Source: Candidatus Woesearchaeota archaeon (GTDB lineage: Archaea > Nanobdellota > Nanobdellia > Woesearchaeales > JACRKL01). From it: DNA of 32,486 bases. Shown here in pieces: positions 2,941-20,916 of the stretch (position 1 is the stretch's first letter; each line of letters opens with the position of its first letter). The DNA lies in contig JACRKL010000043.1 of the NCBI GenBank assembly GCA_016219835.1, positions 1-32,486 on the forward strand, in the 5' to 3' direction. The notes beneath the pieces were generated by a model. It saw only the letters and a program-made list of their open reading frames with translations, was not told the origin of the DNA and searched no databases. The position numbers and the translations under genes were made by a program.

Positions 2941-3541
2941 ACAGCGCTCAACGCTTGCTCAACGCAAGGCGAAAGAAGAGCGGACTAACGGCTTGCGGTT
3001 CGAGCTCTGGCTTGCTGAACTTCTGAGGCAGAAGGAATATCTTAATGTCCTGCATCATGTTGAATTCCACCGTTCACCTGATTGCTTTCGGGAAGTGGAT
3101 GTCAGCTACAACGTTCTCAACAACGAGAAGCTCTACCATGTGCTGGTCGAAGCGAAATACCGCAAGAGCTGGCCAGTGCAATATGCTTTGAGAAAAAGAA
3201 AGAGAAAGAATGGATCTTCTGAAATTTTCAATCTGGTGGATGAAGTAGCTGAACGTCAGCAGTTTGTTGGTGCTGATCTCTCCATCATCGTTACCAACAG
3301 CACGTTTGATGAGCAGATGCAGGAAGAAGCACCGAAGAAAGGCATCAAACTCGTTGATGGTTCTTGGCTGCAATCTACCTATGAAAGGTACGGTGGGAAG
3401 GGGAGCATTGAAGACAGCATCGCTTCCGTTGAGGTGCATGAAAAAGGGCATAAGAATGTGATTTATCTGAATCCTGTTGTCTCTGCCACGACAGCGCAGG
3501 TTTATATGAAAAAAATGATTCATCATTATGCAGGGGAATGA
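2930..3541 (+). CDS. Mrr-like restriction-endonuclease-fold (PD-(D/E)xK) protein (203 aa)
   Basis: Motif order typical of the Mrr catalytic domain: GLRFELWLAELL, then EVDVS (Asp), then VLVEAKYRK (E-x-K), then IIVTNSTF...GIKLVDGSWL. The internal ATG at 2930 is chosen because the upstream part of ORF 2789.. overlaps CDS 2704..2940 and looks non-protein-like. Confidence 0.7.
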   Translation: MQNEQRSTLAQRKAKEERTNGLRFELWLAELLRQKEYLNVLHHVEFHRSPDCFREVDVSYNVLNNEKLYHVLVEAKYRKSWPVQYALRKRKRKNGSSEIFNLVDEVAERQQFVGADLSIIVTNSTFDEQMQEEAPKKGIKLVDGSWLQSTYERYGGKGSIEDSIASVEVHEKGHKNVIYLNPVVSATTAQVYMKKMIHHYAGE

Positions 3542-5177: not shown

Positions 5178-6782
5178 ATGTCAATTGTCATCACCCCTGA
5201 TTCGCTCAGGGCGTATTGCAGGATTGCCGATGTAAAGTACGAAACACTGTATCGGGTTGGCTCTGGAAAAATTACTCGCCATGGCGGATCTGCATGGCAG
5301 GAGTCTTTTTATCAGGATGCACAGCTTTTCGCTGCGGTTACCCATATCGTTACCGATCAATGTAAATCAGATGCCCCTCTTAAAGAGCTTTGCGAAGGTC
5401 ATGAACTGCTCTATGCTGCTGATGTCGCAAGCCGCGTTCTTGAGCAGAAAAACGCCCTGAGCACAATGCCTGATTCTCCAACGCAAACGCTATCGTTGGC
5501 ACCATTCACTATCTCCTATGGAACTGGAGATCTGCAAACAGAGTATTCGCTCATCCGAAAAACTCTGGAGGGATTGGTTGAACGTGTCTCTACATCATCC
5601 TTTGAACCTCGCGTTGCAACGAGGGATTATTTCAGCAGGTATTCCTGCCAGTTGGATCTTGCCCTCCAAAAGCACCTTGGCCAAGATCACTATCGGGAAA
5701 TGAAGTCTATCGAATGGACTATTGGGACCTATATCTTCAAGGGACTAACGCCCCCGCAAATCGTTTCGCGCCCGAACCCAAAGAAGCAGGACGCATCAAA
5801 GCAGGGCGCATCTGATGATCAGGTCGTAGATACCATCGACAATCAGTTCTACACTCCGCTGGCTTACCTTGCTATTCCGCCAAACAAAGTGCTTCCGCGG
5901 GAACGAATCATCGGTGATCAGGACATGATCGCCTATCTTGAGCGCATGGTCAAATGCCTGTTTATGTATAACCCAATAGTCGGCAGGAATCCTATGAGAG
6001 AGAAAAAGATCTTCCAGAACAAAGTTCTCCTGCAGGGCGATCCTGGAGAAGGAAAAGGCGCAGTTTCCTTTTATCTCATCAACTTTGCCGAGCAGCTCAA
6101 TAAGCGCATAGGCTCAGACCTTTTAGTAACCTCATTCAGCATAGACTCTTCGTTCGAAGATGGCAAGATCCAGAAGCTCAAGAGCCAGTTTCATCAGTTA
6201 ACCACGGCAAAACGGCCGTTCTTTATCTATGAAGATGAAATCGATGGCTTATTGAAGTCGGATGATGAATCACATCAGAAGAAAGCAGATCTGCAGGTTG
6301 CGCTTGAATTCAATAAATTTCTCGATGGGCAATATCCTGACAACGGCAACTATTTTTTTCTGGCGAATCTGAACAATGTTAGAAATCTTCGCGGCTCAAC
6401 CAGAAGGCGTTTTGAGGTGCTCCACTGGAAGGGTGCAACAACAAAAGAGGAGAAAGCAACGCTTCTCAGCTACAAGCTGGAGGATGGCATTCGTGCAGGA
6501 TATGTTCATGTAAGCCAGACTCAGATCCAGAAACTGGGATCTCTTGCGTATGAATCGGGTCTTTCCGGAGCAGACATCACCAAAGTCTGCGAGAAGGCAT
6601 GCAGTGATTCCTTTCGTTGGGATCATCTGATTGACATTAAAAACCAAGAGCAGGATTATGAGCAGCAGTTGGATGCCATTGACCACAATCATGACATCGT
6701 AACCTTCGAGAAACTTTCGCAGGCGCTTCTGCAGGAAGTTGACCATCGTGAAACTGCTTTGAAATCATCGAGGAATTACTAA
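5178..6782 (+). CDS. Classical AAA-family ATPase with a ~280-aa unknown N-terminal region (534 aa)
   Basis: Walker A variant GDPGEGKG (nt 6036-6059). Walker B FFIYEDEIDG. Sensor/arginine region FFLANLNN...RRRF. Lid motif LSGADITKVCEKA, typical of CDC48/FtsH/Vps4-type AAA proteins. Confidence 0.8.
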   Translation: MSIVITPDSLRAYCRIADVKYETLYRVGSGKITRHGGSAWQESFYQDAQLFAAVTHIVTDQCKSDAPLKELCEGHELLYAADVASRVLEQKNALSTMPDSPTQTLSLAPFTISYGTGDLQTEYSLIRKTLEGLVERVSTSSFEPRVATRDYFSRYSCQLDLALQKHLGQDHYREMKSIEWTIGTYIFKGLTPPQIVSRPNPKKQDASKQGASDDQVVDTIDNQFYTPLAYLAIPPNKVLPRERIIGDQDMIAYLERMVKCLFMYNPIVGRNPMREKKIFQNKVLLQGDPGEGKGAVSFYLINFAEQLNKRIGSDLLVTSFSIDSSFEDGKIQKLKSQFHQLTTAKRPFFIYEDEIDGLLKSDDESHQKKADLQVALEFNKFLDGQYPDNGNYFFLANLNNVRNLRGSTRRRFEVLHWKGATTKEEKATLLSYKLEDGIRAGYVHVSQTQIQKLGSLAYESGLSGADITKVCEKACSDSFRWDHLIDIKNQEQDYEQQLDAIDHNHDIVTFEKLSQALLQEVDHRETALKSSRNY

Positions 6783-6783
6783 C

Positions 6784-8301
6784 ATGGTGCTCGATCTCAA
6801 TATCATAAAATCCAAGTTTGGCAAACAGGTGCTGAATAATTATTTCGGGATAGATTTCACCGAGAGAATTCCGGTTGCTGATCTCCCACAAGCTGCTCAA
6901 CCTCTGACATCTTCTGCATCTCAAGTTTCTGCTCTGCCTGCTGCAAAGCAGGAGAAGCCAGCACCCAAGAACAAAAGTTCTCCGGGTAATGGTTCTTTTG
7001 ATCCTTTTAAAACCGACGGAGAAACTCGCAGCGTTATTTCGTTTCCTCCAGTTGGTGTTCGGGAAGTGCTTCAACCTCCTTCCGTATCTCCTGCAATTTC
7101 TCCGTATGACCTCACTCAGTATCTTCGGAACTGTTCAGTGGTTGGTGAAGAGGCGAATGGTATCCTCCTCACCGTGAGTTTGTCGAGTGGTATGCATACC
7201 ATTCTGGAAGGCGAATCCGGAAGCGGGAAAAGCCATCTGATGCAGGCAGTCCTTTCTCTCTTTCCTAAGAGTGAAGTTTGCACGGTTGAACAAGTCTCTG
7301 GTCAGGCGATCTGGCATTTTGCTGACCAGTTGAATCAGGCACGCATCGTTTATTTTCCGGAGCTTCAGAAAGTTGTAGCTGATCGGAACAGGAAGCATGC
7401 AGGTATCGTTGAGCTGATGAAGTCCATCGCCGAAGGAAAAGATGCAAGTCGGATGGTTACCAATACGAGCCATGATGGTGTTGATACCTATTGCATTAGC
7501 AAGGAAAAAACACTGGTTGCAACACTTGCAACTGAAAATGATTTCGTTTACGATCGGGAATTTCAGCGAAGATTTTTGTTCCTGAACACTGACGCATCTC
7601 CGCAGCATATCCGTGAAATCATTGACCATAAAGTCACTGACCGGATTGCCGCTACCTTGAGTAGTAGGTATGATCCCCTTGAAGAACGCCTCAGCAGTCG
7701 TGTAACCGAGTTAGGCCATCGTGACGACCTTTATGTCCTGAATCCATTTCTCCCTTATCTCCGCAGAAGCTTTCCCAACAGCAGCAAGACGCAGGCATAC
7801 CTTGAGCATTATCTCAATCTCTTTGAAGCATGGGGGAAATTTTTCCATGATGACCATCAGCAAATCTCCTTGTATGGAAAGACGTTTGTGTTGTTGAATC
7901 TGGAAGACGTGTATCATGTCTACTCCGCTTATCATGATTCGTTTCTTAGGACGCTGGAGTCTTTCAGCGGTGAACAGGCACTGCACTTCAGCCCGGATTG
8001 GAAGACCTGTTTCCTCGAGGGAGTATCCGTTGCTAACACCTTGATTTCTGTTGGCGATGGCACCGATCGGAGTGTTCTCGGGCAGGAGTACCCTCAACTG
8101 ATTGCAGCGTGGAGGGATGCGCAGATGGAAGGATCTTCAATCTATGCCAGAAGTTATAGCACCGGAGAACGTTTTATTCTTGCAGACCTCCGCCAACCTG
8201 CTCCTGCGGCTTTATCTCATACTCATTCTTCTTATGTGACTCCTATCACCGATCCAGCCAGAATGCTTCCTGCATATTGTGAACACCATGATACGACATG
8301 A
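6784..8301 (+). CDS. P-loop NTPase, SF3 (D5/P4-type) helicase-like (505 aa)
   Basis: Walker A GESGSGKS (nt 7210-7233). About 40 aa later comes RIVYFPE (Walker B-like), then MKSIAEGKD..R, then LVATLATEN (motif C-like Asn) and RRFLFL. This spacing matches SF3 helicases. The N-terminal ~130 aa is Pro/Ser-rich. P-loop assignment is confident; SF3 assignment is tentative. Confidence 0.6.
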   Translation: MVLDLNIIKSKFGKQVLNNYFGIDFTERIPVADLPQAAQPLTSSASQVSALPAAKQEKPAPKNKSSPGNGSFDPFKTDGETRSVISFPPVGVREVLQPPSVSPAISPYDLTQYLRNCSVVGEEANGILLTVSLSSGMHTILEGESGSGKSHLMQAVLSLFPKSEVCTVEQVSGQAIWHFADQLNQARIVYFPELQKVVADRNRKHAGIVELMKSIAEGKDASRMVTNTSHDGVDTYCISKEKTLVATLATENDFVYDREFQRRFLFLNTDASPQHIREIIDHKVTDRIAATLSSRYDPLEERLSSRVTELGHRDDLYVLNPFLPYLRRSFPNSSKTQAYLEHYLNLFEAWGKFFHDDHQQISLYGKTFVLLNLEDVYHVYSAYHDSFLRTLESFSGEQALHFSPDWKTCFLEGVSVANTLISVGDGTDRSVLGQEYPQLIAAWRDAQMEGSSIYARSYSTGERFILADLRQPAPAALSHTHSSYVTPITDPARMLPAYCEHHDTT

Positions 8302-10267
8302 AGAACTCTACCAAACCTATCGGACGAAACTGCATCGTCCAGCGGAGGTTTGTCCCATAGAGTCATCGCTCTTGCTTCCACCACTCGATAGCATCGTACC
8401 GTATTTGTATGCCGAACGGCATTGGATTCACCAACTTCCAGAACAGATATCGCAACTGGCTTCTGCTGTCGCAATGCAATCATCTCATGAAAAATTATCG
8501 TTACTTGAATCCATGATCGACCAGCTTCTGCATACCTGCTTCAGCAATGATGCGTATCTTCACCTTGCTGCGCACGTGGTTGCAGCAGGAGATCAGTTGG
8601 ACACTCTGCTCTTTAAACAGATCAATTCCCATACCAAACAATTCGCTCAGCTTCAGGATGCATTGCGGAAGCAGCGGAATAGGGATCGTCTGGTTTCGAT
8701 GCGAACCTCATGCAATACTCTTCATGATGCCTGGCTCTCGCTTGAACAGCTCTATTCCCAACGAGGGCTTCCAGAAAAAGCTATTGCTCGATCCCATCAC
8801 CTCTTGCAGCAGTATGGCAAAGAACGCCAACAAACTGATGTGCTGCGCACCCAGATCGATACGTTGATCTTGGACTATCAATCCATCGGAGAATTATTTT
8901 CTGTCGAGCATCTTGCTCGTCTCCGGAAAGCATCTTCCACGGGATATTTTGGAGGATCGTTAGCAAAATCATGCAACGCTGCTCATTATCCCGAAGGCAT
9001 AGTGCAGCTCAAGGCTCTGCATGAAGAAGTAAACTACATATTGCGAAACCGTGATACGAGCATAGCAGAATCACAGCTCATTCGTTCTGAGACTCAAAAG
9101 ATCAAAGCATTGCATGACCGACTCATTCCCGATGAACATCAGCTTGCAACCAACGATCTTTCCATCGTATTCTCATCGTTATTTCCAGCAGATCGTTTTG
9201 ATGGCACGAGAACTCCACTCTTACTCTCGCAGCAGATCGTTGATTATCAAACCTCAGCAGATGCCTTCATGCACTTGCGAACCGATCTTCTTACCCAAGA
9301 ACAACAAAGGGTGAAACTCGATCTTGATCGTTACGGTGCTGCGGTAAGATCTCTGCCTGCAAGCATGAGCGGCATTGGCGATTATCTAGAACGTTTGACG
9401 ACCGTTCAGCACGCGTTACACGACTGCAATCTCAGAGTCAATGCAGTCGGTGATACCACTACCGGAAAAATAGTGTTGAAGTTACTCGATGATGTGAAAG
9501 ATATGATTCCTGCTCTTCAGGAAGCACATCTCGCTTATGCTACGATGGTGCACTATGCAGAGCAATGCAAAGAGCAGCAGCATGATCTTATCAGCAATTC
9601 CCTCAGCCCCCAACGTCTTGATGCCATTGCCGTGCTGAAGAAGAATGTCGATGGCATCAGTCTCAATCACCCTGCCTACAAAGCAGAAGGAATGCTGTTG
9701 AAGAACAGCGTTCAGGACGGTCTTGCTCTTCTTGTCAGTACTTGCCTCACGCAGGCAGACCAGCTCTATCGTGCAGCAGAAGAACAGAAATACGACCCGG
9801 TGTATGTGCTTTCCCTCTATAAAAAGCTGCATGCCATCAAAGACATCAGCGAGCGGATTGCCAAAACAGAACAGCTCATCCGAACCATGGAGCATGGATC
9901 TTATGTTCAAGCACCCATTGCAGAGTCAGTTGCTCCTCGGGTTGTTGTTCGTAATATTCATTCCCCCTCACCGGTGATTGATCTTTCCGGATTTGATATC
10001 ACCGAATATTTCGAAGGGGTTGTGCCAGAAAATCAGAAGCTGAAGAAATGCTTGGATATTCTCAATGGAGAATACGATGATACTTGGCCCGAACGATTTA
10101 CCCGATTATCAGACTATCTTTCAAAAGCTGACCTCTCTCAAGATGCATCTTATTGTCATCGTTTGAGCAGTGGCATTGAACAGCTTTTGGGAACCCGCTA
10201 TGCTGCTGCTCTACAAGACCATCCAGAGCTTACCGGAAATGTCCTAGGAATGTTGCGCATTCATTAA
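8288..10267 (+). CDS. Large alpha-helical hypothetical protein (659 aa)
   Basis: Long uninterrupted ORF. The ATG at 8288 overlaps the upstream stop by 14 nt; GTG at 8279 is an alternative start. Helix-rich composition, no motif recognised. Confidence 0.7.
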   Translation: MIRHEELYQTYRTKLHRPAEVCPIESSLLLPPLDSIVPYLYAERHWIHQLPEQISQLASAVAMQSSHEKLSLLESMIDQLLHTCFSNDAYLHLAAHVVAAGDQLDTLLFKQINSHTKQFAQLQDALRKQRNRDRLVSMRTSCNTLHDAWLSLEQLYSQRGLPEKAIARSHHLLQQYGKERQQTDVLRTQIDTLILDYQSIGELFSVEHLARLRKASSTGYFGGSLAKSCNAAHYPEGIVQLKALHEEVNYILRNRDTSIAESQLIRSETQKIKALHDRLIPDEHQLATNDLSIVFSSLFPADRFDGTRTPLLLSQQIVDYQTSADAFMHLRTDLLTQEQQRVKLDLDRYGAAVRSLPASMSGIGDYLERLTTVQHALHDCNLRVNAVGDTTTGKIVLKLLDDVKDMIPALQEAHLAYATMVHYAEQCKEQQHDLISNSLSPQRLDAIAVLKKNVDGISLNHPAYKAEGMLLKNSVQDGLALLVSTCLTQADQLYRAAEEQKYDPVYVLSLYKKLHAIKDISERIAKTEQLIRTMEHGSYVQAPIAESVAPRVVVRNIHSPSPVIDLSGFDITEYFEGVVPENQKLKKCLDILNGEYDDTWPERFTRLSDYLSKADLSQDASYCHRLSSGIEQLLGTRYAAALQDHPELTGNVLGMLRIH

Positions 10268-10989: not shown

Positions 10990-11010
10990 GGTGCGGGGTG
11001 GGGAGAAATA

Positions 11011-11020
11011 CTTTAAAAAG
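11011..11020 (-). promoter_or_regulatory. TATA-box-like element upstream of the TrmB-like gene
   Basis: The minus strand reads CTTTTTAAAG, centred ~26-27 nt upstream of the ATG at 10989. The geometry matches the box at 685-692. Confidence 0.35.
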
Positions 11021-11062
11021 ATTCCTTTCATTAAGAGTATATTTGTCGACGCAGGCATAAGC

Positions 11063-11070
11063 TTTATATA
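11063..11070 (+). promoter_or_regulatory. TATA box (TTTATATA) in the divergent intergenic region, upstream of CDS 11119
   Basis: Exact match to the archaeal TTTAWATA-type consensus. The predicted start site at ~11093-11097 would leave a short leader containing the GGGGTGA RBS. The core is near-palindromic, so it could also serve the minus strand. Confidence 0.4.
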
Positions 11071-11118
11071 GCGTTTGCCATTAGTGAGGGAGGAACATAG
11101 GCAGGGGTGAATGGTTGT

Positions 11119-13242
11119 ATGGGTACGATAGATCCCTATTACATCAATGAAGCTCTTCGAATGGTAAAGGGAACGGTTGATGTGAGTAATCGGTTCTTCC
11201 AATCTTTTCATGATGGGAGTGCTGAAAGTTGCACCCTGATGTTATATGGGTTTAAAGATGTTGCCAATGCAGCATTGGTTTCTATTCTTCAAGAGTCTGC
11301 TTTTCTTCATCCGATAAAGAAAGTGTATGCCGTGATGACTGACCATCTCAATACTCCCGAGAGTGTAGAGAAGCACAACGGTCGTAAGGAGTTTTCTGAA
11401 CGTCAAGTGCTGGGTTTACCTCTGAGTACCCGATTTCAAGCGCTCACTCCACAAGAGGTTCCCGGCCATATAGACGAAGTTGACTTCTTCTTTCTTACTG
11501 AATCACGCTGCACTCTTGATGAGGCTATGAACCTCGGCGGGAAAGAGTATTTTCGTGAAGCGATGATTAGAAAGAATCTGCCGATTATTGAGGATATAGC
11601 GTATCTCTTCCAAAAGCCATCTGACCTACAGGTTTGCGTGGTTACCAATCTTCCAGAGATTCTTGCTGCAAAGCTGTTGTTTGAGACTCATCTTGATCCT
11701 GCACAAATATCTGGTTTTAGCCACGCTGATAAGGTCCGCATTGATGGATACTATAATAAGCTATTAGCCTTGAAATCACATCCTTCTTTTTTGAGGAGTG
11801 AATTTTTTGCGGTGGGCAGTCATGATAATCCTTGGCCAGTACTCTCAGGACCTGCACGATTCGATTTTGGTTTAGGGTTTAATGAGCATGCTTTGGTAAT
11901 GAATGAATCTCAATGGAACCGCTTTATTCAAGATGTCCAAGCTTTTGGAGCACGGCAGTATGCAGCTCGAGGTCTTGCACAGCTCAAGAGGCCTCCTACA
12001 AGTGACGTTACTGCATCAGCGATGCGTGAAGTTCTGTTAGGCTATCTCAACAAAGATCGTTTGCTCAACCTTAGCGTATATCATGAGGGTGTCTTTCAGG
12101 AGGGACCAACGTATTTCCAGCACGGAGCACGCATGAACACGATTTTGCTTGAGCGAATGAGTCCTCATGACAGAGAACAACAGTTGCTTCGGGCCAAGAA
12201 TCTCGAGAGCCTGCTTCAAACCTTTTCTATTACTAAAAAAGGGACGATTATTGCTATGCCAGAAATGATGAATCCCGTTCTAGTTCCTAGTCAAGGAGCG
12301 CCTTCACCTACCGCTCCGAGAAAAGAGCTTCAGAGTGAGGATCTTTTAGTTGCCAGAAATACGCTCCAGCCAAATCAACTGATTATCTATGACCTTTCCG
12401 GCAATCATCTCCGAGAGATTCCATTTGGCGAGCGCTCCTATATATTCGGACTTACGTCTTTGGATGATCATCTGATTGTGATGGTGAGGGAACATCCAAA
12501 GCATGGTACACCCTACTGCCGTATGCAGGTCTTAGACTTGAAAACATTCCATGAACAAAAAACCATCGACATCCCCTCTGTCGATGCTTTTGTCGTTACA
12601 CCTCAGAAGATGTATTATACTTCCTCCGACGCTGTTCGTGGAGCAATCCAAGTATGTAACGTACCTGGCGGTCCGGATAAGAAATCATTTAGTTATGATA
12701 ACGATAACTACTTATCACTCCATGTCACTGATTCCCATCTTCTGGCTTGTTCACCAACAAAAGCTGTCGTATGGCTCCTGACAAAACCACATCTTGGAAG
12801 TATTGATTATGAAGGGGCTATCGATCGGAGTACATCCCTCAGTTTCCCTAACGGCGGTGGACTGATCTCCTTTGAGCATGATGGCAAATTAGTTGTCCAA
12901 GAGATTGGCGGTATCTCTGGCGTACGAAAAAGATTGGATGGCACATTCAGCTCTTTTTATGCTGATGAGCAAAACCGTAGTTTGTTCGTAGTAGATCCTA
13001 AAAATTACCTCTGCAGGTATACGTCACCTACTTTAGATCAATTACTGAAAACAGATGAAGTAATGATCTCTAATACTAAAGTTCCGGAGTCAGTTAGGAG
13101 CCTGATCATAACGCCTCGTTCAGTCATTGCTGCTGGTGCTTCAAACTGCTATGTGTTTGATCCATCAAACCTTGCTTATCTCGGACCAGTCGCTTTTGAA
13201 CATGCGTCGAGGGAATGCTATGCCATCATCCAAAAACTTTGA
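11119..13242 (+). CDS. LDH/MDH-like Rossmann-fold domain fused to a C-terminal beta-propeller-like region (707 aa)
   Basis: The N-terminal half follows the lactate/malate dehydrogenase pattern: VCVVTNLPEILAAKLL...ISGFSHADKVRID...AVGSHDNPWPVLS corresponds to vvtNPvD...viG..LDsaR...GEHGds.vP.wS. The dinucleotide loop is degenerate (YGFKDVA). The C-terminal ~300 aa shows repeated beta-strand blades. ATG at 11119 is preceded by GGGGTGA; GTG at 11107 is an alternative start. Confidence 0.6.
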   Translation: MGTIDPYYINEALRMVKGTVDVSNRFFQSFHDGSAESCTLMLYGFKDVANAALVSILQESAFLHPIKKVYAVMTDHLNTPESVEKHNGRKEFSERQVLGLPLSTRFQALTPQEVPGHIDEVDFFFLTESRCTLDEAMNLGGKEYFREAMIRKNLPIIEDIAYLFQKPSDLQVCVVTNLPEILAAKLLFETHLDPAQISGFSHADKVRIDGYYNKLLALKSHPSFLRSEFFAVGSHDNPWPVLSGPARFDFGLGFNEHALVMNESQWNRFIQDVQAFGARQYAARGLAQLKRPPTSDVTASAMREVLLGYLNKDRLLNLSVYHEGVFQEGPTYFQHGARMNTILLERMSPHDREQQLLRAKNLESLLQTFSITKKGTIIAMPEMMNPVLVPSQGAPSPTAPRKELQSEDLLVARNTLQPNQLIIYDLSGNHLREIPFGERSYIFGLTSLDDHLIVMVREHPKHGTPYCRMQVLDLKTFHEQKTIDIPSVDAFVVTPQKMYYTSSDAVRGAIQVCNVPGGPDKKSFSYDNDNYLSLHVTDSHLLACSPTKAVVWLLTKPHLGSIDYEGAIDRSTSLSFPNGGGLISFEHDGKLVVQEIGGISGVRKRLDGTFSSFYADEQNRSLFVVDPKNYLCRYTSPTLDQLLKTDEVMISNTKVPESVRSLIITPRSVIAAGASNCYVFDPSNLAYLGPVAFEHASRECYAIIQKL

Positions 13243-14068
13243 AGTGCTTTCCTGCTATCGCCTTGGCAGGCAGAAAAAACAGCTGTCCCATACGAATGAG
13301 GATTGCCGTTGGATAGATCGTACACATAATCTTTACATGGTTGCTGACGGGCTTGGTGGTCATGGTCATGGTGATGAAGCTAGCAGGATTACTCTGGAGT
13401 CTATTGCACACAAGCTTTCCCGGATGTATCTTGGTCTTCGCAATGGCATCTTTCAGACGGAAGACATCCCCGTGGAGATTAGTTCTGCCATGGGTTACGC
13501 TAATCACGAGATCCTCTGTCCATTGGCAACGTACTCGCCGAGCCTCGAGAATTTTGCAACGACCGTTGCGCTGTTATATTGCCATTCCTCTCAAGCATAC
13601 ATCGCCCATGTTGGTGATTCGAGAGTCTATCGTTTTCGTGATGGGTCTCTCAGTTGTCTTACGGCTGATGACCGTGAACTGAAGGATGCTCAACATCCGC
13701 TTGCAGGGTCTTATGTTACCCAATCGCTCGGGAAAGAAGCGATCGAGATACATCAGTCTCAGTTGGAGATTGCCACTGGGGACACGTTCCTCCTCACGAC
13801 TGATGGTTTGACTGATTATGCAACTGATGGAGAAATTGAACAGATTCTCCGAGAGAGTTCGTTCGCTGATGCTCCAAAACTGCTGGTGCATCTGGCAAAT
13901 TATCCTCAGGATGTCGCTGCTGCGTACGCGGATTACTGGCAGATATCCAAGAGCAGCGCAAGGAAGATGCTCGGCGGGAGGGATAACATTACCTTCATAC
14001 TCTTAAAAGCTGGGAGGGAGAACAATGGAAAGGCTGGAATTGTTAAGGTATCTGGATCAGGACTTTAA
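13220..14068 (+). CDS. PP2C-family Ser/Thr protein phosphatase (282 aa)
   Basis: Motifs NEDC...YMVADGLGGHGHGDEAS, AHVGDSRVYRF..G.L..LTADD, LLTTDGLTDY and GGRDNITFILL. The internal ATG at 13220 (GAGGGAA upstream) is preferred over 13127 or 13202. Confidence 0.85.
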   Translation: MPSSKNFEVLSCYRLGRQKKQLSHTNEDCRWIDRTHNLYMVADGLGGHGHGDEASRITLESIAHKLSRMYLGLRNGIFQTEDIPVEISSAMGYANHEILCPLATYSPSLENFATTVALLYCHSSQAYIAHVGDSRVYRFRDGSLSCLTADDRELKDAQHPLAGSYVTQSLGKEAIEIHQSQLEIATGDTFLLTTDGLTDYATDGEIEQILRESSFADAPKLLVHLANYPQDVAAAYADYWQISKSSARKMLGGRDNITFILLKAGRENNGKAGIVKVSGSGL

Positions 14069-15377
14069 GATCATGGATGTAACAAGGGGTGGTGGCTCTG
14101 CTCATATTGTTAAGGCAACGGCACTTCGTGAGTTGTCACAGTTTTCTCTTAAGAAAGGAGTTACGGTGGCACTGAAGTCTCCGAAAAATCCCAATGCAGA
14201 AGCCAGACAACGGTTTAAGATTGAGTATGAAGTGCTCAACCGATTTAAGAATCATCCCCATATTGTCACGCCATATGGGCTTACTCAATGTGGTGAACGT
14301 TATCCTATCTTGGTTATGGAATGGGTGGAACGTTCTCTTGCGAGTTATACTCGAGATCAGAATGCCCACTTCCTGACGCCAGATATTGCCGGAAAATTCC
14401 TGAAGCAGGCAGGTGCTGCACTTTCAGCTCTTCACGACCAAAATGATTCTGTCGGCTATCTCCACAGGGATATCAAACCAGACAACCTTCTTTTGCTTGG
14501 GAATAATCAAACCGTTAAATTGAGTGATTTTGGATGCGTCATGCCTTTAGGATCCGCACCTGAACGGGAGCTGCTTCCTGCGTCAAGTAGCCACGGTCTT
14601 GTTTACTATGGGGCGCCAGAAACTCTTGAGGATGATGAAACAAAGCGGGTCTACAGCAGGGAATCGGACATCTATTCACTGGCTGTATCGATGATTTACC
14701 TGCTGGCAGGAACAACTCCTTTTGAAGGGGATGCTGCCGGAACGAAACGGAAAGAACTGGTTGTGCGGAAGAGGGATAGCACCTATCTTGATGATGCTGT
14801 TGCTTTCCTGCTCTCGGAGAGAATTCCAAAGCACCAGCAGGAAGTTTTACGACAGGCGATTGATGGAACACCAGGAAACCGTCAACCTTCCGTCCAAGCA
14901 TTCCTCGACGACTTTTTTAGGGAGAAAAAGGATCCGCATGGATTGTATTTTGCAGAACGGTACAAGACGATTGAAGAAGTCCTTGGTGACCCAGCACGAA
15001 ATGTTTTTGGAGTAACGCAGGAGATTGGAGTCGATCGCATGCTAACAGCATATGAGGAAATGGTGAAGTATGCAAGTGAACATACCGTTACATCTTCGTT
15101 GGTTGGAGATGCAAAGACGAAGATCACCACACGGGCACAGCAGGATTATAGAATCCTCGAGGGTCACATTGCTGGTGCATCTGCCTTGGAGAATGCAGCT
15201 AAGAAGCATCCAGGTGGGTACACTAATTTTGGACAGGAGTTGGTGCATTACTTTAGGGTCTGGGGTGACGAATTTTCTCCATTTGCCAATCCTCAGCAGA
15301 AGAGAATCCATGCTACGGATGTTCTGGACTTTAGCGATCCAAGATACAAGGAGTTTACATTTGATCCACGGAAGTGA
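14025..15377 (+). CDS. Hanks-type Ser/Thr protein kinase with ~170-aa C-terminal extension (450 aa)
   Basis: Gly-loop TRGGGSAHIV, VALKSPK (catalytic Lys), HRDIKPDN (nt 14463-), LSDFG (nt 14526-) and YYGAPE. GGGAGGGAG RBS 4 nt upstream. It overlaps the PP2C gene by 44 nt. Confidence 0.9.
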   Translation: MERLELLRYLDQDFKIMDVTRGGGSAHIVKATALRELSQFSLKKGVTVALKSPKNPNAEARQRFKIEYEVLNRFKNHPHIVTPYGLTQCGERYPILVMEWVERSLASYTRDQNAHFLTPDIAGKFLKQAGAALSALHDQNDSVGYLHRDIKPDNLLLLGNNQTVKLSDFGCVMPLGSAPERELLPASSSHGLVYYGAPETLEDDETKRVYSRESDIYSLAVSMIYLLAGTTPFEGDAAGTKRKELVVRKRDSTYLDDAVAFLLSERIPKHQQEVLRQAIDGTPGNRQPSVQAFLDDFFREKKDPHGLYFAERYKTIEEVLGDPARNVFGVTQEIGVDRMLTAYEEMVKYASEHTVTSSLVGDAKTKITTRAQQDYRILEGHIAGASALENAAKKHPGGYTNFGQELVHYFRVWGDEFSPFANPQQKRIHATDVLDFSDPRYKEFTFDPRK

Positions 15378-15385
15378 GGCTTGTC

Positions 15386-16531
15386 ATGGTTGAACAAAGT
15401 TTGGAAGAACGGCTGAAAGAAACCTTTCAGCGATTGAAAGAGCGAGAAGCAGCGGAAGCTGCATTGGAAAAGAAATCCGTAAGATGGAAATGGTTTAAGA
15501 GAATTAGCGGCAGCATTGCAGCATTATGCCTTGCTGCGGGCATTGGCTATGGTGCCATGAACTACAAAAGCCTATCGCATGAGTTCTTTCCTCAGCCGAC
15601 GCCGACATCGACTGCAACGGTAACGCCAACAGCTACTCCAAAAAAAACACCAACATTGATGGGTACCATCTTAACAAGTTATCGTTCGAATCTAAATCTC
15701 CTTAGGGGATACAACTACGAAGAAATAAATCGGATTGTTTATGAGTCTATTGGTAATCTTCCTCCTCTTAACCAAAAACAGATAACTGAGGTTGTACAAA
15801 CGATTCTTTCTCATGAAATGCCCTCCATTAAAACTAATGAGATTACGACATATAACGATCTTTTCTTTACACGTTTTATTGGTACTTCATACTATGCAGG
15901 GTACAATCATTTTATTGTTTCAAATAGAGAACCAATAGCGGTATTTGGAAGGAGTCTGCTCGGAAAAGATAATGACCCTCTTATGATTAATATCACTGGA
16001 GATATAGGTTCCTTAGGGCATTCTGCAGAATATACCCATTTTATTGTTAAAGGGAATGTGTCTCTTTGTGGAGAAGATTCCGAAAGGTGTACTTTCAGAG
16101 TAGATGGAAATACTGAGGGTTATTTAGGTCATAATTCCAATGATAGCATTTATTTCATAAATGGAGTAGTAGGAACAGAGTTAGGAGACAGATCGAGTTT
16201 TTGTAAATTTACCGTGATGGGGAATGTTGGAGACTCTTGTGGGGATTGGTCAAATAACGCCGAGGTTATGGTCTCTGGAAATGTTGGAGCCCATTTAGGT
16301 ATTAATGCACGCGATGGTACGTTTACCATAAAGGGCTCAACTGGTGATTATATTGGTCATGAAGCACGTCGCTCAACCTTCATTATATTTGGAACTATTG
16401 GACAATTATTCTATCGTGATGGTTTTCCCTCAGATTGCACATTCATTTGTTATCTTCCTGAAACGTACCAAGCTCTCATGAACCATTATAACGTCAATAA
16501 CAACACCATCAAGTTATCGACTCAAAAATAG
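15386..16531 (+). CDS. N-terminally anchored surface protein: PT linker plus GXGXG-type beta-helix repeats (381 aa)
   Basis: Cytoplasmic helix LEERLKETFQRLKEREAAEAA, basic stop-transfer, TM (ISGSIAALCLAAGIGYGA) and PT linker (PQPTPTSTATVTPTATPKKTPT). These are followed by 7-8 coils of ~19 aa with the pattern h.h.G..G..hG (nt ~15983-16405), as in the GXGXG domain of FwdC / glutamate synthase. The ATG at 15386 aligns with the paralogue's start. Confidence 0.65.
   Translation: MVEQSLEERLKETFQRLKEREAAEAALEKKSVRWKWFKRISGSIAALCLAAGIGYGAMNYKSLSHEFFPQPTPTSTATVTPTATPKKTPTLMGTILTSYRSNLNLLRGYNYEEINRIVYESIGNLPPLNQKQITEVVQTILSHEMPSIKTNEITTYNDLFFTRFIGTSYYAGYNHFIVSNREPIAVFGRSLLGKDNDPLMINITGDIGSLGHSAEYTHFIVKGNVSLCGEDSERCTFRVDGNTEGYLGHNSNDSIYFINGVVGTELGDRSSFCKFTVMGNVGDSCGDWSNNAEVMVSGNVGAHLGINARDGTFTIKGSTGDYIGHEARRSTFIIFGTIGQLFYRDGFPSDCTFICYLPETYQALMNHYNVNNNTIKLSTQK
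15408..15462 (+). repeat. 55-nt near-identical segment, copy 1 (5' end of CDS 15386)
   Basis: 53 of 55 nt are identical to 16566-16620, although the rest of the two genes has diverged. It contains a perfect 7-bp hairpin ctgaaag-aaac-ctttcag (15413-15430). Confidence 0.85.
15590..15655 (+). repeat. Pro/Thr-rich linker-coding low-complexity region
   Basis: Encodes PQPTPTSTATVTPTATPKKTPT directly after the TM helix. Confidence 0.8.
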
Positions 16532-16543
16532 GCTTCGAAAAAA

Positions 16544-18106
16544 ATGACCGACAAACCCCTCGAACAACGGCTGGAAGAAACCTTTCAGCGATTGAAAGAG
16601 CAAGAAGCAGCGGAAGCTGCGAAGGGAACTGAACAGAGTACAGTTGGAGCACCCTATGAAACCAAAGCATCAAATCCTATGGGTCATTCATGGTTCAGAA
16701 AACTAGGGATAGGGATTACCGTTTTAGGGTTGGCTACACTTTGCTATGTGGGGATGCTAAAACCCACCCAATCTACCCTTACCTCAAACGTCTCTACTCC
16801 TGCCCTAGTACAGAAACTGCCTGATGGTGTTACTGCACTCAACTCAGCGTTCTACCAGATTGATTCTGTGATTACTCTTCCGTTAGGTAAACATTTTGTG
16901 GATAAAGATATTTGTGTTGCATCGACCGGGAAGCTTACACTCCTCCCCGGATCTGAATTGTATTTCGGCAAGGATGCAGGAATCTCGTGCAAAGGAAACT
17001 TGGAAGCTATCGGTGATCAACAGCGTCCCATCTTGTTTACTTCGTTAGGCGATTCATGGAAGAATATCGTCCTCACTTCCAACCAACCCTCTAAACTCTC
17101 CTATTGTATCTTCCGGCAGGGCCATGGTCGTGATCATGATGCTTACTTAGACCGACAACCCATGGCTTTCAGTGGTCAAATGAGAGGCGGAGCAATTTTA
17201 ATAGCAAACTCTAAAGCAGGTATTGACCATTGCACATTTGAGAATAACCAAGCGTATGAAGGCGGTGCTATTTTTCTTGATGATGCCAATGCAACAATCT
17301 CTTACTGTAATTTTTTTGATAATTCGGGTAGTACAAGAGGCGGAGGCATTGCAACCATGAACTCAAAGATCAGCATTAACCAGAACGTCTTCTCTAGGAA
17401 TAATAGCAGTTTTGGAGGCGGAGCATGGTTTTTTCGATCGGAAATCATGTTAATCGAAAACCTCTTTGAGGCTAATAACGCTGATGAGGGTGGCGGGTTA
17501 AAGTGTGAAGCAACAGGTGGTGGTATTTGGGATAATACTTTTAGAAGCAATCGGGCAACTCAGCGTGGTGCAGGATTAGACCTTCGTGGAAATTCTCCTG
17601 AAGGTCATAGCTTCCTTATGGAAGGAAATAAGATCCTCTCCAACGTTTGTACGGGGGAGTATTCTCGTGGTGGGGGTGTACATGCTGAGTACTTAGTAAT
17701 GCCGTTAATGAGTTGGAATCATGTTGAGGGAAATAAAGCTGAGTGTGGGGCAGGATTTTCGTTTATGGATAGTTCAGATATTTATCTTTCCCAGAATACA
17801 ATGGAGAACAATACTGCTTCTAACACTGGCGGAGGGATTTGGATGCAGCGCGTTAAGAAGATGTATATGCAAAAAAATCTCATAGGTTATAATACCGCAG
17901 GAAATGGGGTTGGAGGGATATTCTTTGCTGACATGAATTTATCTGGATTGTATACCTATGTCTGCAAAACCACCGCAACAACGGTAGACTACGATTCAAA
18001 GACTAGCGTTGGCATTAACTTAGTAGATCTTGATAAGAACACTATCATAACTGAATGGAAGAAGATGAATCATAATGTTGTTATTGGCAACACTCCTCCT
18101 CCCTAA
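16544..18106 (+). CDS. N-terminally anchored surface protein with right-handed parallel beta-helix (PbH1/Pmp-like) repeats (520 aa)
   Basis: Same N-terminal motif (LEQRLEETFQRLKEQEAAEAA) plus a TM helix. More than 10 repeats of the GGAI/GGGI...F..N type follow (e.g. GGAILIANSKAGIDHCTFENN, GGAIFLDDANATISYCNFFDN, GGGIATMNSKISINQNVFSRN). Confidence 0.8.
   Translation: MTDKPLEQRLEETFQRLKEQEAAEAAKGTEQSTVGAPYETKASNPMGHSWFRKLGIGITVLGLATLCYVGMLKPTQSTLTSNVSTPALVQKLPDGVTALNSAFYQIDSVITLPLGKHFVDKDICVASTGKLTLLPGSELYFGKDAGISCKGNLEAIGDQQRPILFTSLGDSWKNIVLTSNQPSKLSYCIFRQGHGRDHDAYLDRQPMAFSGQMRGGAILIANSKAGIDHCTFENNQAYEGGAIFLDDANATISYCNFFDNSGSTRGGGIATMNSKISINQNVFSRNNSSFGGGAWFFRSEIMLIENLFEANNADEGGGLKCEATGGGIWDNTFRSNRATQRGAGLDLRGNSPEGHSFLMEGNKILSNVCTGEYSRGGGVHAEYLVMPLMSWNHVEGNKAECGAGFSFMDSSDIYLSQNTMENNTASNTGGGIWMQRVKKMYMQKNLIGYNTAGNGVGGIFFADMNLSGLYTYVCKTTATTVDYDSKTSVGINLVDLDKNTIITEWKKMNHNVVIGNTPPP
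16566..16620 (+). repeat. 55-nt near-identical segment, copy 2 (5' end of CDS 16544)
   Basis: See copy 1. The hairpin is retained with one G-U wobble (ctggaag-aaac-ctttcag, 16571-16588). Confidence 0.85.
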
Positions 18107-18122
18107 TATGGTGATCTAAAAA

Positions 18123-18947
18123 ATGACTCTTGAATCCCAACTCAAACATGCTTGGATCCGCATGATCTACCATGACGGCATCAGTGATCTTATATGTGAA
18201 TCGCTGTTTGCAATGCCGGGCTGGGATGATGTCTTTGCGAAGCTGGAAGATCCCTCGCTTCTTTCATTATGGTCTTCTTATATGTCCGCATGGCTTGGCA
18301 ATCCATCAGATCGACAATCGCTCCAAGAGGATCCCGCCTATGCACCTGCTGTTTCCCTCCGGAATCAATATCGCCCTTATCTTCTCTCCATCAAAGAACT
18401 CTTGGACAGCCATGGTGAAGATCATGGCTACTTGCGTGCTTCTTTCTTGAAAGGGCTTGCAGATGCAAACACCACATCAGCGGATGATCCGCTTCCGATA
18501 TTGGTGAGGGAATATCTCGATCTCTATCAGCATACCGAGATGGTATGGTCAGCTCACTCTCCCTCAACAAATAGTTCTGTTGGTCTCTCGTTTAGGGAAT
18601 TTTACCGGGAGAAGAGAGAACGAATGAAGAGCATGCCGTGGGATTTCACCGTCCAGACGCCGTATGGGATCTTCCAACGTCAAGTGAATGATTCCTCGCT
18701 TCAGGTATCCCTCTCAGGAAAGCCCGTTGTTGAAGCCGTTGGTTACCTGATGGCATCCAGTTCTCCACATGATCTGTCGATTCCATTCTTGTATGATCTT
18801 GCTCATGGAAACGCGTTTTACGCGTCTTGTGAAGGCAGCAGCATCGACCGTTCCGTGCCGCTCTTCAACTTCCTGCTCGGCAGGTCAGAGAAAAATGGCA
18901 GGATGGTTTGTGCGATTGAATTGATAACAGGTGAGCACCATGGGTGA
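18123..18947 (+). CDS. Hypothetical protein; C-terminal region resembles the two downstream beta-grasp-like proteins (274 aa)
   Basis: GGTGAT RBS upstream. The C-terminus ...LFNFLLGRSEKNGRMVCAIELITGEHHG parallels ...THFLKIGTSDPYLLCEIRIY and ...PFLLAKHF..KPYRLCEMRMM of the next two products. Confidence 0.6.
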   Translation: MTLESQLKHAWIRMIYHDGISDLICESLFAMPGWDDVFAKLEDPSLLSLWSSYMSAWLGNPSDRQSLQEDPAYAPAVSLRNQYRPYLLSIKELLDSHGEDHGYLRASFLKGLADANTTSADDPLPILVREYLDLYQHTEMVWSAHSPSTNSSVGLSFREFYREKRERMKSMPWDFTVQTPYGIFQRQVNDSSLQVSLSGKPVVEAVGYLMASSSPHDLSIPFLYDLAHGNAFYASCEGSSIDRSVPLFNFLLGRSEKNGRMVCAIELITGEHHG

Positions 18948-19326
18948 ACAAGACTTTTTGCTCTTGCCAGTACAGATTGAGCTGTATTACCAGACTCAGA
19001 TCTATGGCGCTTATTTCCGTCCGGATGAGGAGCAGAAAAAACTGCTGAGAGATATGACCTTGAATGAAGCTATCGCATTCAGCTGGCATCATGCATCATG
19101 CGCCAGAGCAATTCCTGAGCTCAAGGTATTAGTTTCCTATCCTATCGAAGCTCGTGTCTTCCATCATACCTATCGGAAAATGTTCGATGGTTCCGGCACG
19201 TGTCTTGTTGATGAGCTTGCCAGAAGATTTGTTGATCCAACTCATTTCCTGAAGATAGGGACGTCTGATCCTTATCTTCTTTGCGAGATTCGCATCTATC
19301 ATGAAAACAGGAGGGATGTACCATGA
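18940..19326 (+). CDS. Beta-grasp-like protein, paralogue of the 19323 product, no di-glycine (128 aa)
   Basis: ATGGGTGA start/stop overlap with the upstream gene. It aligns with the next product over the whole domain: PVQIELYYQ/PLVIRLYPE, MTLNEAIAFSW/ITIADAVRFAM, LKVLVSY/IKLVIGS, PYLLCEIRIY/PYRLCEMRMM. Confidence 0.55.
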   Translation: MGEQDFLLLPVQIELYYQTQIYGAYFRPDEEQKKLLRDMTLNEAIAFSWHHASCARAIPELKVLVSYPIEARVFHHTYRKMFDGSGTCLVDELARRFVDPTHFLKIGTSDPYLLCEIRIYHENRRDVP

Positions 19327-19763
19327 GTGAAGAAACCATAGATTTAATGACGCAGCCGCTGGTGATACGATTGTATCCGGAAAGTAATCTTACGGGCATT
19401 GAATCAAAGTGCCAAGATGATCGGAGAAAAGGGCTAATAACCATTGCAGACGCTGTTCGATTTGCGATGGAGAATTACCAGAAGACTAGTTATTCGGCAA
19501 CGAATTATAATTCCTTGAAGAAACTCGTAGACAAGCCCAGCGGTATTAAATTAGTTATTGGTTCATCGACCTATGGCTTTAAGGATCTCCATGGTACGAC
19601 TATTTCGACTCCGCCTTTTCTGTTAGCGAAGCATTTCTCTCCTCAGGTCGATCGAGACTTAAAGCCCTATCGTCTTTGTGAAATGAGAATGATGGATGTA
19701 GGAGGAGATGTATTAGGAGGGTTGTATGGATCAGACTTATCTGACCGAATTGGCTCGAAGTAA
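19323..19763 (+). CDS. Candidate ubiquitin-like modifier precursor (146 aa)
   Basis: ATGA overlap and AGGAGGG RBS. The strand-helix-strand pattern is compatible with a beta-grasp fold. The terminal strand YRLCEMRMMDV is followed by G127-G128 (nt 19701-19706) and an 18-aa tail containing a second LGG. It lies directly upstream of the E2-like/JAB/E1 genes. Confidence 0.5.
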   Translation: MSEETIDLMTQPLVIRLYPESNLTGIESKCQDDRRKGLITIADAVRFAMENYQKTSYSATNYNSLKKLVDKPSGIKLVIGSSTYGFKDLHGTTISTPPFLLAKHFSPQVDRDLKPYRLCEMRMMDVGGDVLGGLYGSDLSDRIGSK

Positions 19764-20916
19764 TCTGGTGCTTATCGCACTGGATCGAATCTTTGAAGTA
19801 AGCATGAAGGGATCTCATCATCCCTTTTGGTGCAACTTCTCAGGTCAATACTGTGGATTGAGGGAGTCGGAGATGATCCGCTACTTTGAGAACCAGCTGA
19901 TGACTCCTTTGCTTTTCAAGGATTCTTCCGTTCCCCAGATAATCGAAACGCTTGGTCAGCTTAACGGACGCATAGCTAACGCACAAAAAAAGATGGAACG
20001 GAATGCTCTTGAAGCATTTATTGAGAATTTCCTGAATGACTGGAGCATTGGTGGAAGGCTCAAAAAGCAACGGAACACTGATCAGCAACCGATGGAGATT
20101 CCTTCTCTTGATGCATACTCATTCCACGAAGGAGATGGCACAGATTATGTGCTCCAGCGGTTGCTTCCTTCTCCGGGAGCGCTTATAGCAAGTAAGGATG
20201 TTTTCCATTTGGTCCCTTATGATGGCGGAAATACTCGTGTGAATATGGGCGATCAGTCTTTCTCTCTACGATACCATACCTCGTTAGCAGAACTCGAGAA
20301 ATCCTACACCCGTGAGCTTTCAAAACATTGCTCACATAAACAAACCATCTTGATAAATCAGTACCAGTCCATTGCACAATCTCTTGAACGGATGATTACG
20401 GAGATTGAAGCATCTAGTGTTCCTGCAGAAAATGCGAGGGGCGAGGTTGGCTGGTTCAAGGAAGACGGCAATTACTATCTGTACATTGTAAAGGATAATT
20501 TCACACTGGAAGAGGAGGGGATCGTTTGCAGATTCCCTTCTTGCAAGTTAGGGGTTCGGTTGATCTTGACTGGAAAAACGATCAGTTATGATTCTAATTC
20601 AAGTACTGGGGCAACACGTATATTCTTTTCTCGCAGTATTAAAGATGGCAAAGAAGTCGGTGATATGCAGAGTCTCAAGAATGGAGTATATAAACATCCA
20701 GCAACTACTACTAACGGGAGCGTTCCTTACCCCTACTTATGCGTAAGCGGCACCAATCTACCTAAACCCTCCGAAACTCTTTCATCTGCTGCATGCCTAC
20801 GAACAGTACTCTCAAAACTCCATCTGGTCATTGAGCATGGGTATCATGGAGGAACAGTGCACGTATATCGTCATCTCAGTGACTCTTCATTTGAACCGTT
20901 CAAGGTGAGGCCATGA
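19726..20916 (+). CDS. Hypothetical protein; possible E2 (UBC-fold)-like C-terminal domain (396 aa)
   Basis: GGAGGG RBS 5 nt upstream. In residues ~215-375, a helix, four strand-like segments, then YKHP-x13-LC(339)VSG and a following helix (LSSAACLRTVLSKLHLVIE) resemble the E2 HPN...Cys active-site layout. Its position between the Ubl and JAB/E1 genes supports the call. The CDS is confident; the function is tentative. Confidence 0.4.
   Translation: MDQTYLTELARSNLVLIALDRIFEVSMKGSHHPFWCNFSGQYCGLRESEMIRYFENQLMTPLLFKDSSVPQIIETLGQLNGRIANAQKKMERNALEAFIENFLNDWSIGGRLKKQRNTDQQPMEIPSLDAYSFHEGDGTDYVLQRLLPSPGALIASKDVFHLVPYDGGNTRVNMGDQSFSLRYHTSLAELEKSYTRELSKHCSHKQTILINQYQSIAQSLERMITEIEASSVPAENARGEVGWFKEDGNYYLYIVKDNFTLEEEGIVCRFPSCKLGVRLILTGKTISYDSNSSTGATRIFFSRSIKDGKEVGDMQSLKNGVYKHPATTTNGSVPYPYLCVSGTNLPKPSETLSSAACLRTVLSKLHLVIEHGYHGGTVHVYRHLSDSSFEPFKVRP

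Follow-up and report, generated by a model that had tools for sequence, protein, structure and literature searches.

The window analysed here is a stretch of 32,486 nucleotides (nt) from a Candidatus Woesearchaeota archaeon, and is the entire contig JACRKL010000043.1 of a 1.34-Mb assembly in 128 contigs (GCA_016219835.1) that is 92% complete. Three consecutive genes encode a fusion protein, in which a domain resembling lactate and malate dehydrogenases (LDH/MDH) is joined to a beta-rich domain, a PP2C (PPM) phosphatase and a Hanks-type Ser/Thr kinase (Table 1). With the ATG start codons used in Table 1 the first and second genes overlap by 23 nt and the second and third by 44 nt, values that vary with the choice of start. 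An original prediction, made from the letters of the sequence alone, had described three genes with these overlaps, and both values were reproduced from the open reading frames (ORFs) and their start codons. The gene calls, like the Lys46 codon and the contig ends discussed below, were read from the assembled sequence.

Table 1. Features of the window and of the promoter regions compared with it (aa, amino acids; wHTH, winged helix-turn-helix; NTPase, nucleoside triphosphatase; AF2, AlphaFold2; PDB, Protein Data Bank)
Feature	Position	Strand	Basis or remark
AAA ATPase (Vps4/fidgetin-like), novel P-loop NTPase and 662-aa protein	5178-10267	+	Conserved upstream neighbours
P-loop NTPase, 505 aa	6784-8301	+	Second most conserved cluster protein (E 1e-126 to relatives)
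TrmB-family regulator, 241 aa: wHTH, dimerisation helix, family-specific C-terminal domain of ~120 aa	10264-10989	-	Pfam, PDB profile
Divergent intergenic region	10990-11118	.	TATA-like TTTATATA (11063-11070), 5′ of the LDH-like gene
Promoter/operator-candidate region	Contig 11040-11100; L005 ~6120-6175; intergenic in L039, L040, L042, L043	.	Comparison of relatives
Fusion protein, 707 aa from ATG (711 aa from 11107)	11119-13242	+	LDH/MDH-like domain, Pro/Ser/Thr-rich linker, beta-rich C-terminal domain
Complete LDH/MDH two-domain fold, residues ~35-385	11221-12273	+	AF2, Foldseek, profile search of PDB
Degenerate dinucleotide-binding loop G44-F-K46-D-V-A49	11248-11265	+	Alignment with relatives
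R146-x6-N153, equivalent of RxDLxxxN motif (Arg109)	11554-11577	+	Conservation in 23 sequences; R in 1a5z aligned
Asn177 in VVTNLPE, equivalent of Asn140 of TNPVD	11647-11649	+	Alignment
Asp204-Lys-Val-Arg207, equivalents of Asp168 and substrate Arg171	11728-11739	+	Alignment
Gly233-Ser-His235-Asp, equivalent of GEH195G with catalytic His	11815-11826	+	Alignment
Beta-rich C-terminal domain, residues ~418-707	12370-13239	+	DSSP on AF2 model
PP2C (PPM) phosphatase, 282 aa from ATG at 13220 (frame opens 13127)	13220-14068	+	Pfam PP2C_2, metal-binding motifs
Hanks-type Ser/Thr kinase, 450 aa	14025-15377	+	Pfam Pkinase, catalytic motifs
Kinase domain	Roughly 14151-14885	+	Pfam Pkinase
Family-specific helical kinase tail	14886-15374	+	Alignment of cluster kinases
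Two membrane-anchored beta-helix proteins	15374-18106	+	NosD and PMP-repeat matches; directly 3′ of kinase

When 401 sampled genomes of the order were searched with a profile, 40 had a match, and about 20 of these matches were in open frames of 670-900 aa. Twenty-four loci, among them 20 further loci that were fetched, were compared after annotation with profiles grown from the proteins of the contig. The fusion, which had been predicted to be one gene, is a single ORF of 670-870 aa in most relatives. The order LDH-like gene, PP2C, kinase was found on one strand, with the genes overlapping or no more than 29 nt apart, in 10 related loci belonging to different GTDB families. The assignment of the three genes to one tightly coupled operon is supported.

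To identify the N-terminal half of the fusion protein we used sequence, profile and structure searches. The 707-aa protein lies below every Pfam threshold and had no Pfam match, and a word-indexed homologue search was empty both with the protein alone and with a 30-sequence alignment. Searching PDB with the single sequence returned an archaeal L-2-hydroxycarboxylate dehydrogenase at a marginal E-value of 0.019, in an alignment that pairs VVTNLPE with ITNPVD, SHADKVR with THLDSLR and VGSHD with IGEHGD. A family profile of four sequences, all distant relatives of the same order taken from the genome search, gave 51 matches in PDB. All were of LDH/MDH type (one being a metagenome entry named only MGS-M5), and the best was the Thermotoga LDH 1a5z, with an E-value of 2.4e-11. 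An AF2 model built on 30 very divergent sequences had predicted local distance difference test (pLDDT) scores that were mostly 75-95 in a block over residues ~35-385 and lower near 80-100; the pLDDT of the single-sequence model was just 35.6. When the model was compared with PDB by Foldseek, the top 50 matches were all LDH/MDH (E 4e-14 to 6e-13, target-normalised template modelling score 0.71-0.79, ~355 columns), and the match spans the complete two-domain enzyme. GH4 glycosidases of the AglA type and other Rossmann families were considered as candidates, and none appeared among the 51 profile matches or the Foldseek top 50. The profile matches and the predicted fold, together with the conserved active-site residues described below, therefore show that residues ~35-385 are a genuine, highly divergent member of the LDH/MDH superfamily, and that the LDH/MDH pattern had been read correctly in the original prediction.

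Residues equivalent to those of the LDH/MDH active site were assigned from HMMER alignments and motif identity, in textbook LDH numbering, and not by superposition of coordinates. Among 23 aligned N-domains, which are ~20% identical, N153 is invariant; R146, N177, R207, G233 and H235 are kept in at least 90%, and Asp204 in most. The GSHD (residues 233-236) and ADKVRID (203-209) sequences singled out earlier as the catalytic-His and substrate-Arg positions line up with GEHGD and LDxxR in LDH/MDH chains of solved structure. The residue set for 2-oxo/2-hydroxy-acid binding and for catalysis is complete, with equivalents of Arg109, Asn140, Asp168, Arg171 and His195.

The glycine loop of the NAD-binding site is degenerate, as had also been noted. 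It reads Y-G44-F-K46-D-V-A49, so that the GxGxxG/A pattern is not matched in this copy. Lys46, at the second Gly of the loop, is encoded by AAA (11254-11256), and two changes would be needed to obtain a Gly codon. Of the 22 aligned relatives most keep GxG, among them all the closest ones (P0001-P0007); the break is therefore confined to this copy and does not characterise the family. An acidic residue, Asp75, is retained behind beta-2. Judging from the position of the lysine, dinucleotide binding is probably weakened, and perhaps lost, in this copy. The specificity loop, from the TA motif to Arg146, has 18 residues against nine in canonical MDHs of the same order. As its length varies in the family, no residue can be assigned to the Gln/Arg102 specificity position. 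The suggestion that the LDH-like domain is a pseudoenzyme appears unlikely for the family as a whole, in which the R/N/D/R/H set is near-invariant and GxG mostly kept, and is a possibility for this copy only, through Lys46.

These features bear on whether the fusion is a working 2-hydroxyacid dehydrogenase, acting on lactate, malate or a related substrate. The kinase and PP2C would then adjust how active it is or how it assembles, with the beta-rich domain as a regulatory or oligomerisation appendage and the adjoining TrmB-like protein as an ordinary metabolic regulator of the operon. The near-invariant catalytic dyad and substrate arginines, and the GxG of most relatives, argue for this, as does the source genome, in whose 92%-complete sequence no canonical LDH/MDH (Ldh_1_N match) was found. 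TrmB-family regulators classically govern sugar metabolism, which also fits. In a tree of the LDH-like domains the long forms do not come out as a single clade apart from ordinary MDHs, and half of the tree keeps the canonical TNPVD, intermixed with the ordinary 305-312-aa MDHs of the order. The only well-supported part of the tree is the half that holds the protein of this contig (25 rows, support 99/96). Loci L030, L034 and L035, which belong to other genomes of the order, encode ordinary MDHs of this length. Set against a dehydrogenase are Lys46 of this copy, which replaces the second Gly in the NAD loop, the extreme sequence divergence, and the variable specificity loop lacking a Q/R102 position. 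The long form, moreover, is confined to some 5% of genomes of the order, close relatives exchange the C-terminal partner for a membrane anchor and ectodomain, and a bulk metabolic enzyme would not usually be translationally coupled, in equimolar amounts, to a kinase and a phosphatase. We consider a working dehydrogenase unlikely.

The LDH-like domain is followed, at about residues 386-417, by the Pro/Ser/Thr-rich linker, and then by a C-terminal domain that DSSP assigned on the AF2 model as all-beta, with ~24 strands in groups of four. Over residues 420-515 the pLDDT ranges from 58 to 73, and it falls below 50 in most of 518-707. No Pfam match was obtained for this domain or for the C-termini of nine relatives and no PDB sequence match for this domain, and hhalign detected no internal repeat in the C-terminal region of one related subfamily. 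Of the beta-propeller proposed originally for this half, the beta-rich character is borne out and the propeller is not, given the low pLDDT and the lack of a Pfam, PDB or repeat signal; on the present model a propeller is plausible but unproven. The C-terminal regions of the family form more than 10 clusters with no detectable similarity to each other, and that of this contig is a singleton. In a same-genus pair the C-terminal regions are 67% identical, compared with 76% for the LDH N-domain, 76% for PP2C, 85% for the P-loop protein and 90% for TrmB. The beta-rich domain is thus fast-evolving, and is joined to the LDH-like domain by a flexible linker.

Other arrangements of the C-terminal part were also seen. 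In P0002, P0003, P0005, P0010 and P0011 (the last from genome G400, locus L045, 6626-9040), the place of the beta-rich domain is taken by a C-terminal ectodomain of ~150 aa and by predicted transmembrane helices, one or two in number. These forms have a receptor-like architecture, with the LDH-like domain predicted to be cytoplasmic. L045, the sole locus of a membrane-anchored form that was looked at, has the TrmB gene and neither kinase nor PP2C. In genome G009 (locus L007, 1143-2321) a separate beta-rich protein of 392 aa is encoded between the TrmB-like and LDH-like genes. The LDH-like gene of G009 continues past the contig end, and the separate beta-rich gene may be a split or rearranged fusion.

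Both enzymes encoded downstream of the fusion gene look catalytically complete from their sequences, as had been predicted. The phosphatase scored 54.4 bits with Pfam PP2C_2 (cut-off 24, E 1.6e-14), and the metal-binding motifs NED, ADGLGGH, GDSR, TDGL and RDN were found by inspection. The kinase scored 112.6 bits with Pfam Pkinase (cut-off 31.7, E 2.9e-32) and has a Gly-rich loop, VALK, HRDIKPDN, DFG and APE. The catalytic Lys, the Asp of HRD, the Asn and the Asp of DFG are retained in all 12 cluster kinases compared. The 170-aa tail that follows the kinase domain had been called unrecognised, and it matches no Pfam family; it is, however, alignable across the 12 cluster kinases, which have a WG..PF motif in common, and is therefore a conserved, cluster-specific domain. 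The kinase is without a membrane anchor, PASTA or other known sensor domain.

The occurrence of the three genes was followed across the order. Counts of neighbours among the 24 loci are lower bounds, several of the loci being cut by contig ends. Beside the LDH-like gene, a TrmB-like regulator was found in 19 loci, a Vps4-like AAA ATPase in 17, the Hanks kinase in 15, the P-loop NTPase and PP2C in 11 each, and a relative of the 662-aa protein in 10. About 20 very divergent Nanoarchaeota genomes retain this neighbourhood, with AAA ATPase, P-loop NTPase, a divergently placed TrmB-like regulator, the fusion, a kinase and, often, PP2C. The locus of the closest relative of the fusion, P0001 (31% identity), has the P-loop protein, a protein like the 662-aa one, a divergent TrmB gene, the fusion, and a kinase gene overlapping by 4 nt. 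Within the well-supported clade, all long soluble forms with downstream DNA have the kinase, and all except the one at the P0001 locus also have PP2C; the forms counted are those of this contig and eight related loci, plus the P0001 locus with kinase only. Forms with a membrane anchor and ectodomain (G400 and several metagenome proteins) and short forms (G077 and G233) have neither kinase nor PP2C. It therefore appears that the beta-rich domain is functionally tied to the kinase/PP2C pair.

An exhaustive HMMER scan of 1.8 billion representative proteins yielded 16 relatives, all of them matched through the N-domain. The named relatives are from Nanoarchaeota or Candidatus Nanoarchaeia archaeon, and all are annotated "hypothetical protein". 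With the long form in only about 20 of 401 genomes, and 16 matches in 1.8 billion proteins, the module is accessory and not housekeeping.

The original prediction had placed the module on a mobile element, from which it might sense host metabolism or reprogramme host phosphorylation. A 32-kb linear mobile element or virus carrying the genes as cargo would account for a 139-nt inverted repeat, 99% identical, at the two ends of the contig (1-139 and 32348-32486). No recognisable housekeeping gene lies on the contig, and the P-loop NTPase matches the phage family phrog_12057, of no known function, at E 3e-11. When the repeat was compared with the whole assembly by blastn, however, it was found (135-146 nt) at the ends of more than 50 other contigs, at both ends of several and never internally. 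The contigs concerned include C1, C2, C4, C5, C6, C13 and others up to C128. The repeat, whose first bases make up a small hairpin (CTTCT-TGGC-AGAAG), is dispersed; it is probably a high-copy palindromic or foldback element at which the assembly breaks, and not the ends of a linear replicon. The G+C content of the contig (46.0%) is close to that of the genome (45.2%), and in other genomes the orthologous cluster is internal to contigs of 191, 262, 389 and 439 kb. These three observations leave the premise of a mobile element unsupported, and we regard such an element as very unlikely. A chromosomal, lineage-specific operon of Nanoarchaeota (DPANN) is the best explanation, which corrects the notion of the contig as a linear mobile element.

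The regulator gene upstream of the fusion gene was analysed in the same way. Its product scored 59.3 bits with Pfam TrmB (PF01978; cut-off 25.6) over residues 6-73, and the corresponding profile matched Pyrococcus furiosus TrmB (3qph, E 1.7e-9) and TrmBL2 over residues 4-122 only. The sugar-binding C-terminal domain of TrmB sensu stricto was not matched in PDB, and no Pfam match was found in this part. A link between the module and a divergent TrmB-like regulator had been proposed, and it is conserved: the orthologue adjoins the LDH-like gene in the 19 loci counted above, mostly in divergent orientation, and is 39-54% identical across the order. The copy beside the LDH-like gene forms an orthologous line of its own among the paralogues of the genome, which number at least 15. 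These lie, for example, at C49:2205-2945, C51:19386-20123, C14:4423-5124 and C110:28690-29424, within 1.34 Mb. TrmB-like matches (E ≤ 1e-30) are present in 285 of the 401 genomes of the order, many with at least seven copies, an unusually large expansion for reduced genomes.

The intergenic region between the regulator and fusion genes was compared with those of relatives. Seven related loci carry a conserved archaeal promoter, AAAnnTATATAAAT(A/G)TT, at the place corresponding to the TATA-like sequence, and in five or six of them an inverted repeat, YACT-N4-7-AGTR, follows about 12-16 nt further on. This contig keeps just the right half-site, ATTAGTG. On the strength of this comparison, YACT-N4-7-AGTR is a candidate TrmB operator.

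Two ATPases and the 662-aa protein are encoded upstream of the regulator gene. The AAA protein matches Vps4/fidgetin chains in PDB. The P-loop NTPase matches solved structures solely at Walker A, apart from the phage family mentioned above, and appears to represent an undescribed NTPase family. Downstream of the kinase, the genes for the two beta-helix proteins are likely to be in the same transcription unit. The 520-aa beta-helix protein has relatives in five related loci, and locus L039 has two Beta_helix proteins directly after the kinase. The two proteins of this contig have a common N-terminal cytoplasmic peptide, LE(E/Q)RL(K/E)ETFQRLKE (15374-15470 and 16544-16630), which is found nowhere else in the genome and could be a docking or phosphorylation motif. 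In G058 a 398-aa protein (L006, 10725-11921), whose gene lies a short way upstream of that for the LDH-like protein, begins LENRVEETLKELRE. The peptide was considered as a target of the kinase, and this candidate was dropped as it is present in just three proteins.

Genes further away were also compared. A gene with an Mrr_cat-like nuclease fold (2789-3541) recurs in four related loci and that for a 484-aa protein (30037-31491) in five; the conserved neighbourhood therefore reaches beyond the operon. A ubiquitin-like cassette (18123-24447) is common to none of the 23 other loci. The genes that flank the cluster in the large contigs of relatives were uninformative.

With these neighbours, the cluster might be an island for conflict or host interaction, with a part in defending against viruses or in controlling the surface of the symbiont. 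Its members would be the Mrr-like nuclease, the AAA ATPase, the P-loop NTPase, the regulator, the LDH-like protein, the kinase/PP2C pair and the beta-helix surface proteins, with the constant LDH-like domain as effector or transducer and the variable C-terminal domain recognising a changing target. The patchy distribution and fast evolution, quickest in the C-terminal region, are consistent with this, as are the more than 10 unrelated sequence clusters of C-terminal domains, the Mrr_cat-like and beta-helix surface genes common to several loci, and the ubiquitin-like conjugation cassette nearby. The best PADLOC match of the kinase is mad6, and the P-loop protein weakly matches mad8. These matches, however, are to a generic kinase domain and Walker A, PADLOC and PHROGs having returned generic kinase, PP2C and Walker A matches only, and no other component fits any defence model. 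There is no recognisable toxic effector, and no precedent for an oxidoreductase as a defence effector. We consider an island of this kind distinctly unlikely.

We tentatively favour a reading in which the fusion, PP2C and kinase act as one cytoplasmic phospho-signalling unit, with the LDH-like protein as ligand-binding partner or target. The LDH-like domain would bind a 2-oxo- or 2-hydroxy-carboxylate and, in most relatives, also NAD(P)H, and this binding could report metabolic or redox state. The beta-rich domain may provide a docking surface for the kinase tail, a phospho-acceptor, or both. The kinase would write the state and PP2C erase it, and the readout might be on co-encoded proteins, namely the membrane beta-helix proteins, the ATPases or the regulator. 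Since Lys46 probably weakens dinucleotide binding, it would shift this copy towards a binding-only role.

Several points weigh against such a signalling unit. The near-invariant catalytic residues, and the GxG of most relatives, argue for working enzymes; if the family are probably enzymes, the LDH-like protein could be the regulated output and not the sensor. PP2C is found in only 11 of the 24 loci and the kinase in 15, the constant partners being TrmB and the AAA ATPase. With a specificity loop nine residues longer than that of canonical MDH, and variable, the ligand cannot be named. The fold of the C-terminal domain is a low-confidence prediction.

A bolder form of the signalling reading can be envisaged, in which the LDH/MDH-like domain provides archaeal Ser/Thr phospho-signalling with a new kind of input module. 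Derived from an enzyme, it would sense a 2-oxo/2-hydroxy acid or the NADH/NAD ratio and gate the kinase and PP2C through the variable beta-rich domain, so switching surface beta-helix proteins, and with them host attachment, by metabolic state. We think this improbable as it stands.

The components were compared with known systems. The fusion protein has the same two-domain fold as canonical L-LDH/L-MDH (Ldh_1_N and Ldh_1_C; Thermotoga maritima 1a5z and Methanocaldococcus jannaschii MJ0490, 1hyg/9sa7), with the Arg109, Asn140, Asp168, Arg171 and His195 positions and the R-x6-N motif alike. It differs in being only ~15% identical and under every Pfam threshold, and in having NLPE for NPVD, a longer specificity loop without Q/R102 and, in this copy, an NAD loop whose second Gly is replaced by Lys. 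It also has additional parts: ~30 N-terminal residues, 320 residues of linker and beta-rich domain, and the kinase/phosphatase operon. In bacterial Hanks-kinase/PP2C operons, such as those of PknB-PstP in Mycobacterium and PrkC-PrpC in Bacillus, the pair is co-transcribed. An intact PPM phosphatase adjacent to an equally intact eukaryote-like Ser/Thr kinase is found in these as in the present operon. Here, unlike in the bacterial systems, the kinase lacks a membrane anchor and PASTA domains and ends in a helical tail specific to the cluster, the LDH-like fusion heads the operon, and the organism is archaeal (DPANN).

Trigger enzymes and enzyme-derived sensors exist, for example Bacillus subtilis RocG, which acts with GltC, and in vertebrate UEVLD a UEV domain is fused to an LDH-like domain. 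The resemblance is that the fold of a metabolic enzyme occurs in a regulatory setting, or is joined to a protein-interaction domain, beside a dedicated transcription factor. Homology ends at the LDH fold, however; the partner domains differ, and the link to the regulator here is one of gene neighbourhood. The regulator resembles TrmB and TrmBL2 of Thermococcales (3qph, 5bqt) in the N-terminal wHTH and the next helix, at the E-value given above. It differs from them in its C-terminal ~120 residues, which do not match the sugar-binding domain, and in having at least 15 paralogues in a 1.3-Mb genome.

A literature search found no description of an operon of an LDH-like protein with a kinase/PP2C pair, nor of an LDH-like domain with a variable beta-rich or membrane-anchored C-terminus, a dedicated TrmB orthologue and two ATPases. 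Each of the parts, namely the LDH/MDH fold, the PPM phosphatase, the Hanks kinase and the TrmB wHTH, is of a known kind; the architecture and the conserved operon were not found in the literature searched. An Aravind-lab survey of conflict systems describes kinase, PP2C and vWA themes in actinobacteria, with no LDH-like protein among them (PMC7159879).

Very little has been learnt of sensing and regulation in DPANN archaea, which are host-dependent and have tiny genomes. Across many deeply divergent families of one order, a recognisable enzyme fold has been recruited to a conserved operon with a eukaryote-like kinase, PP2C, a regulator and two ATPases. The operon is a concrete, testable entry to archaeal phospho-signalling, and to metabolic enzymes turned regulatory parts.

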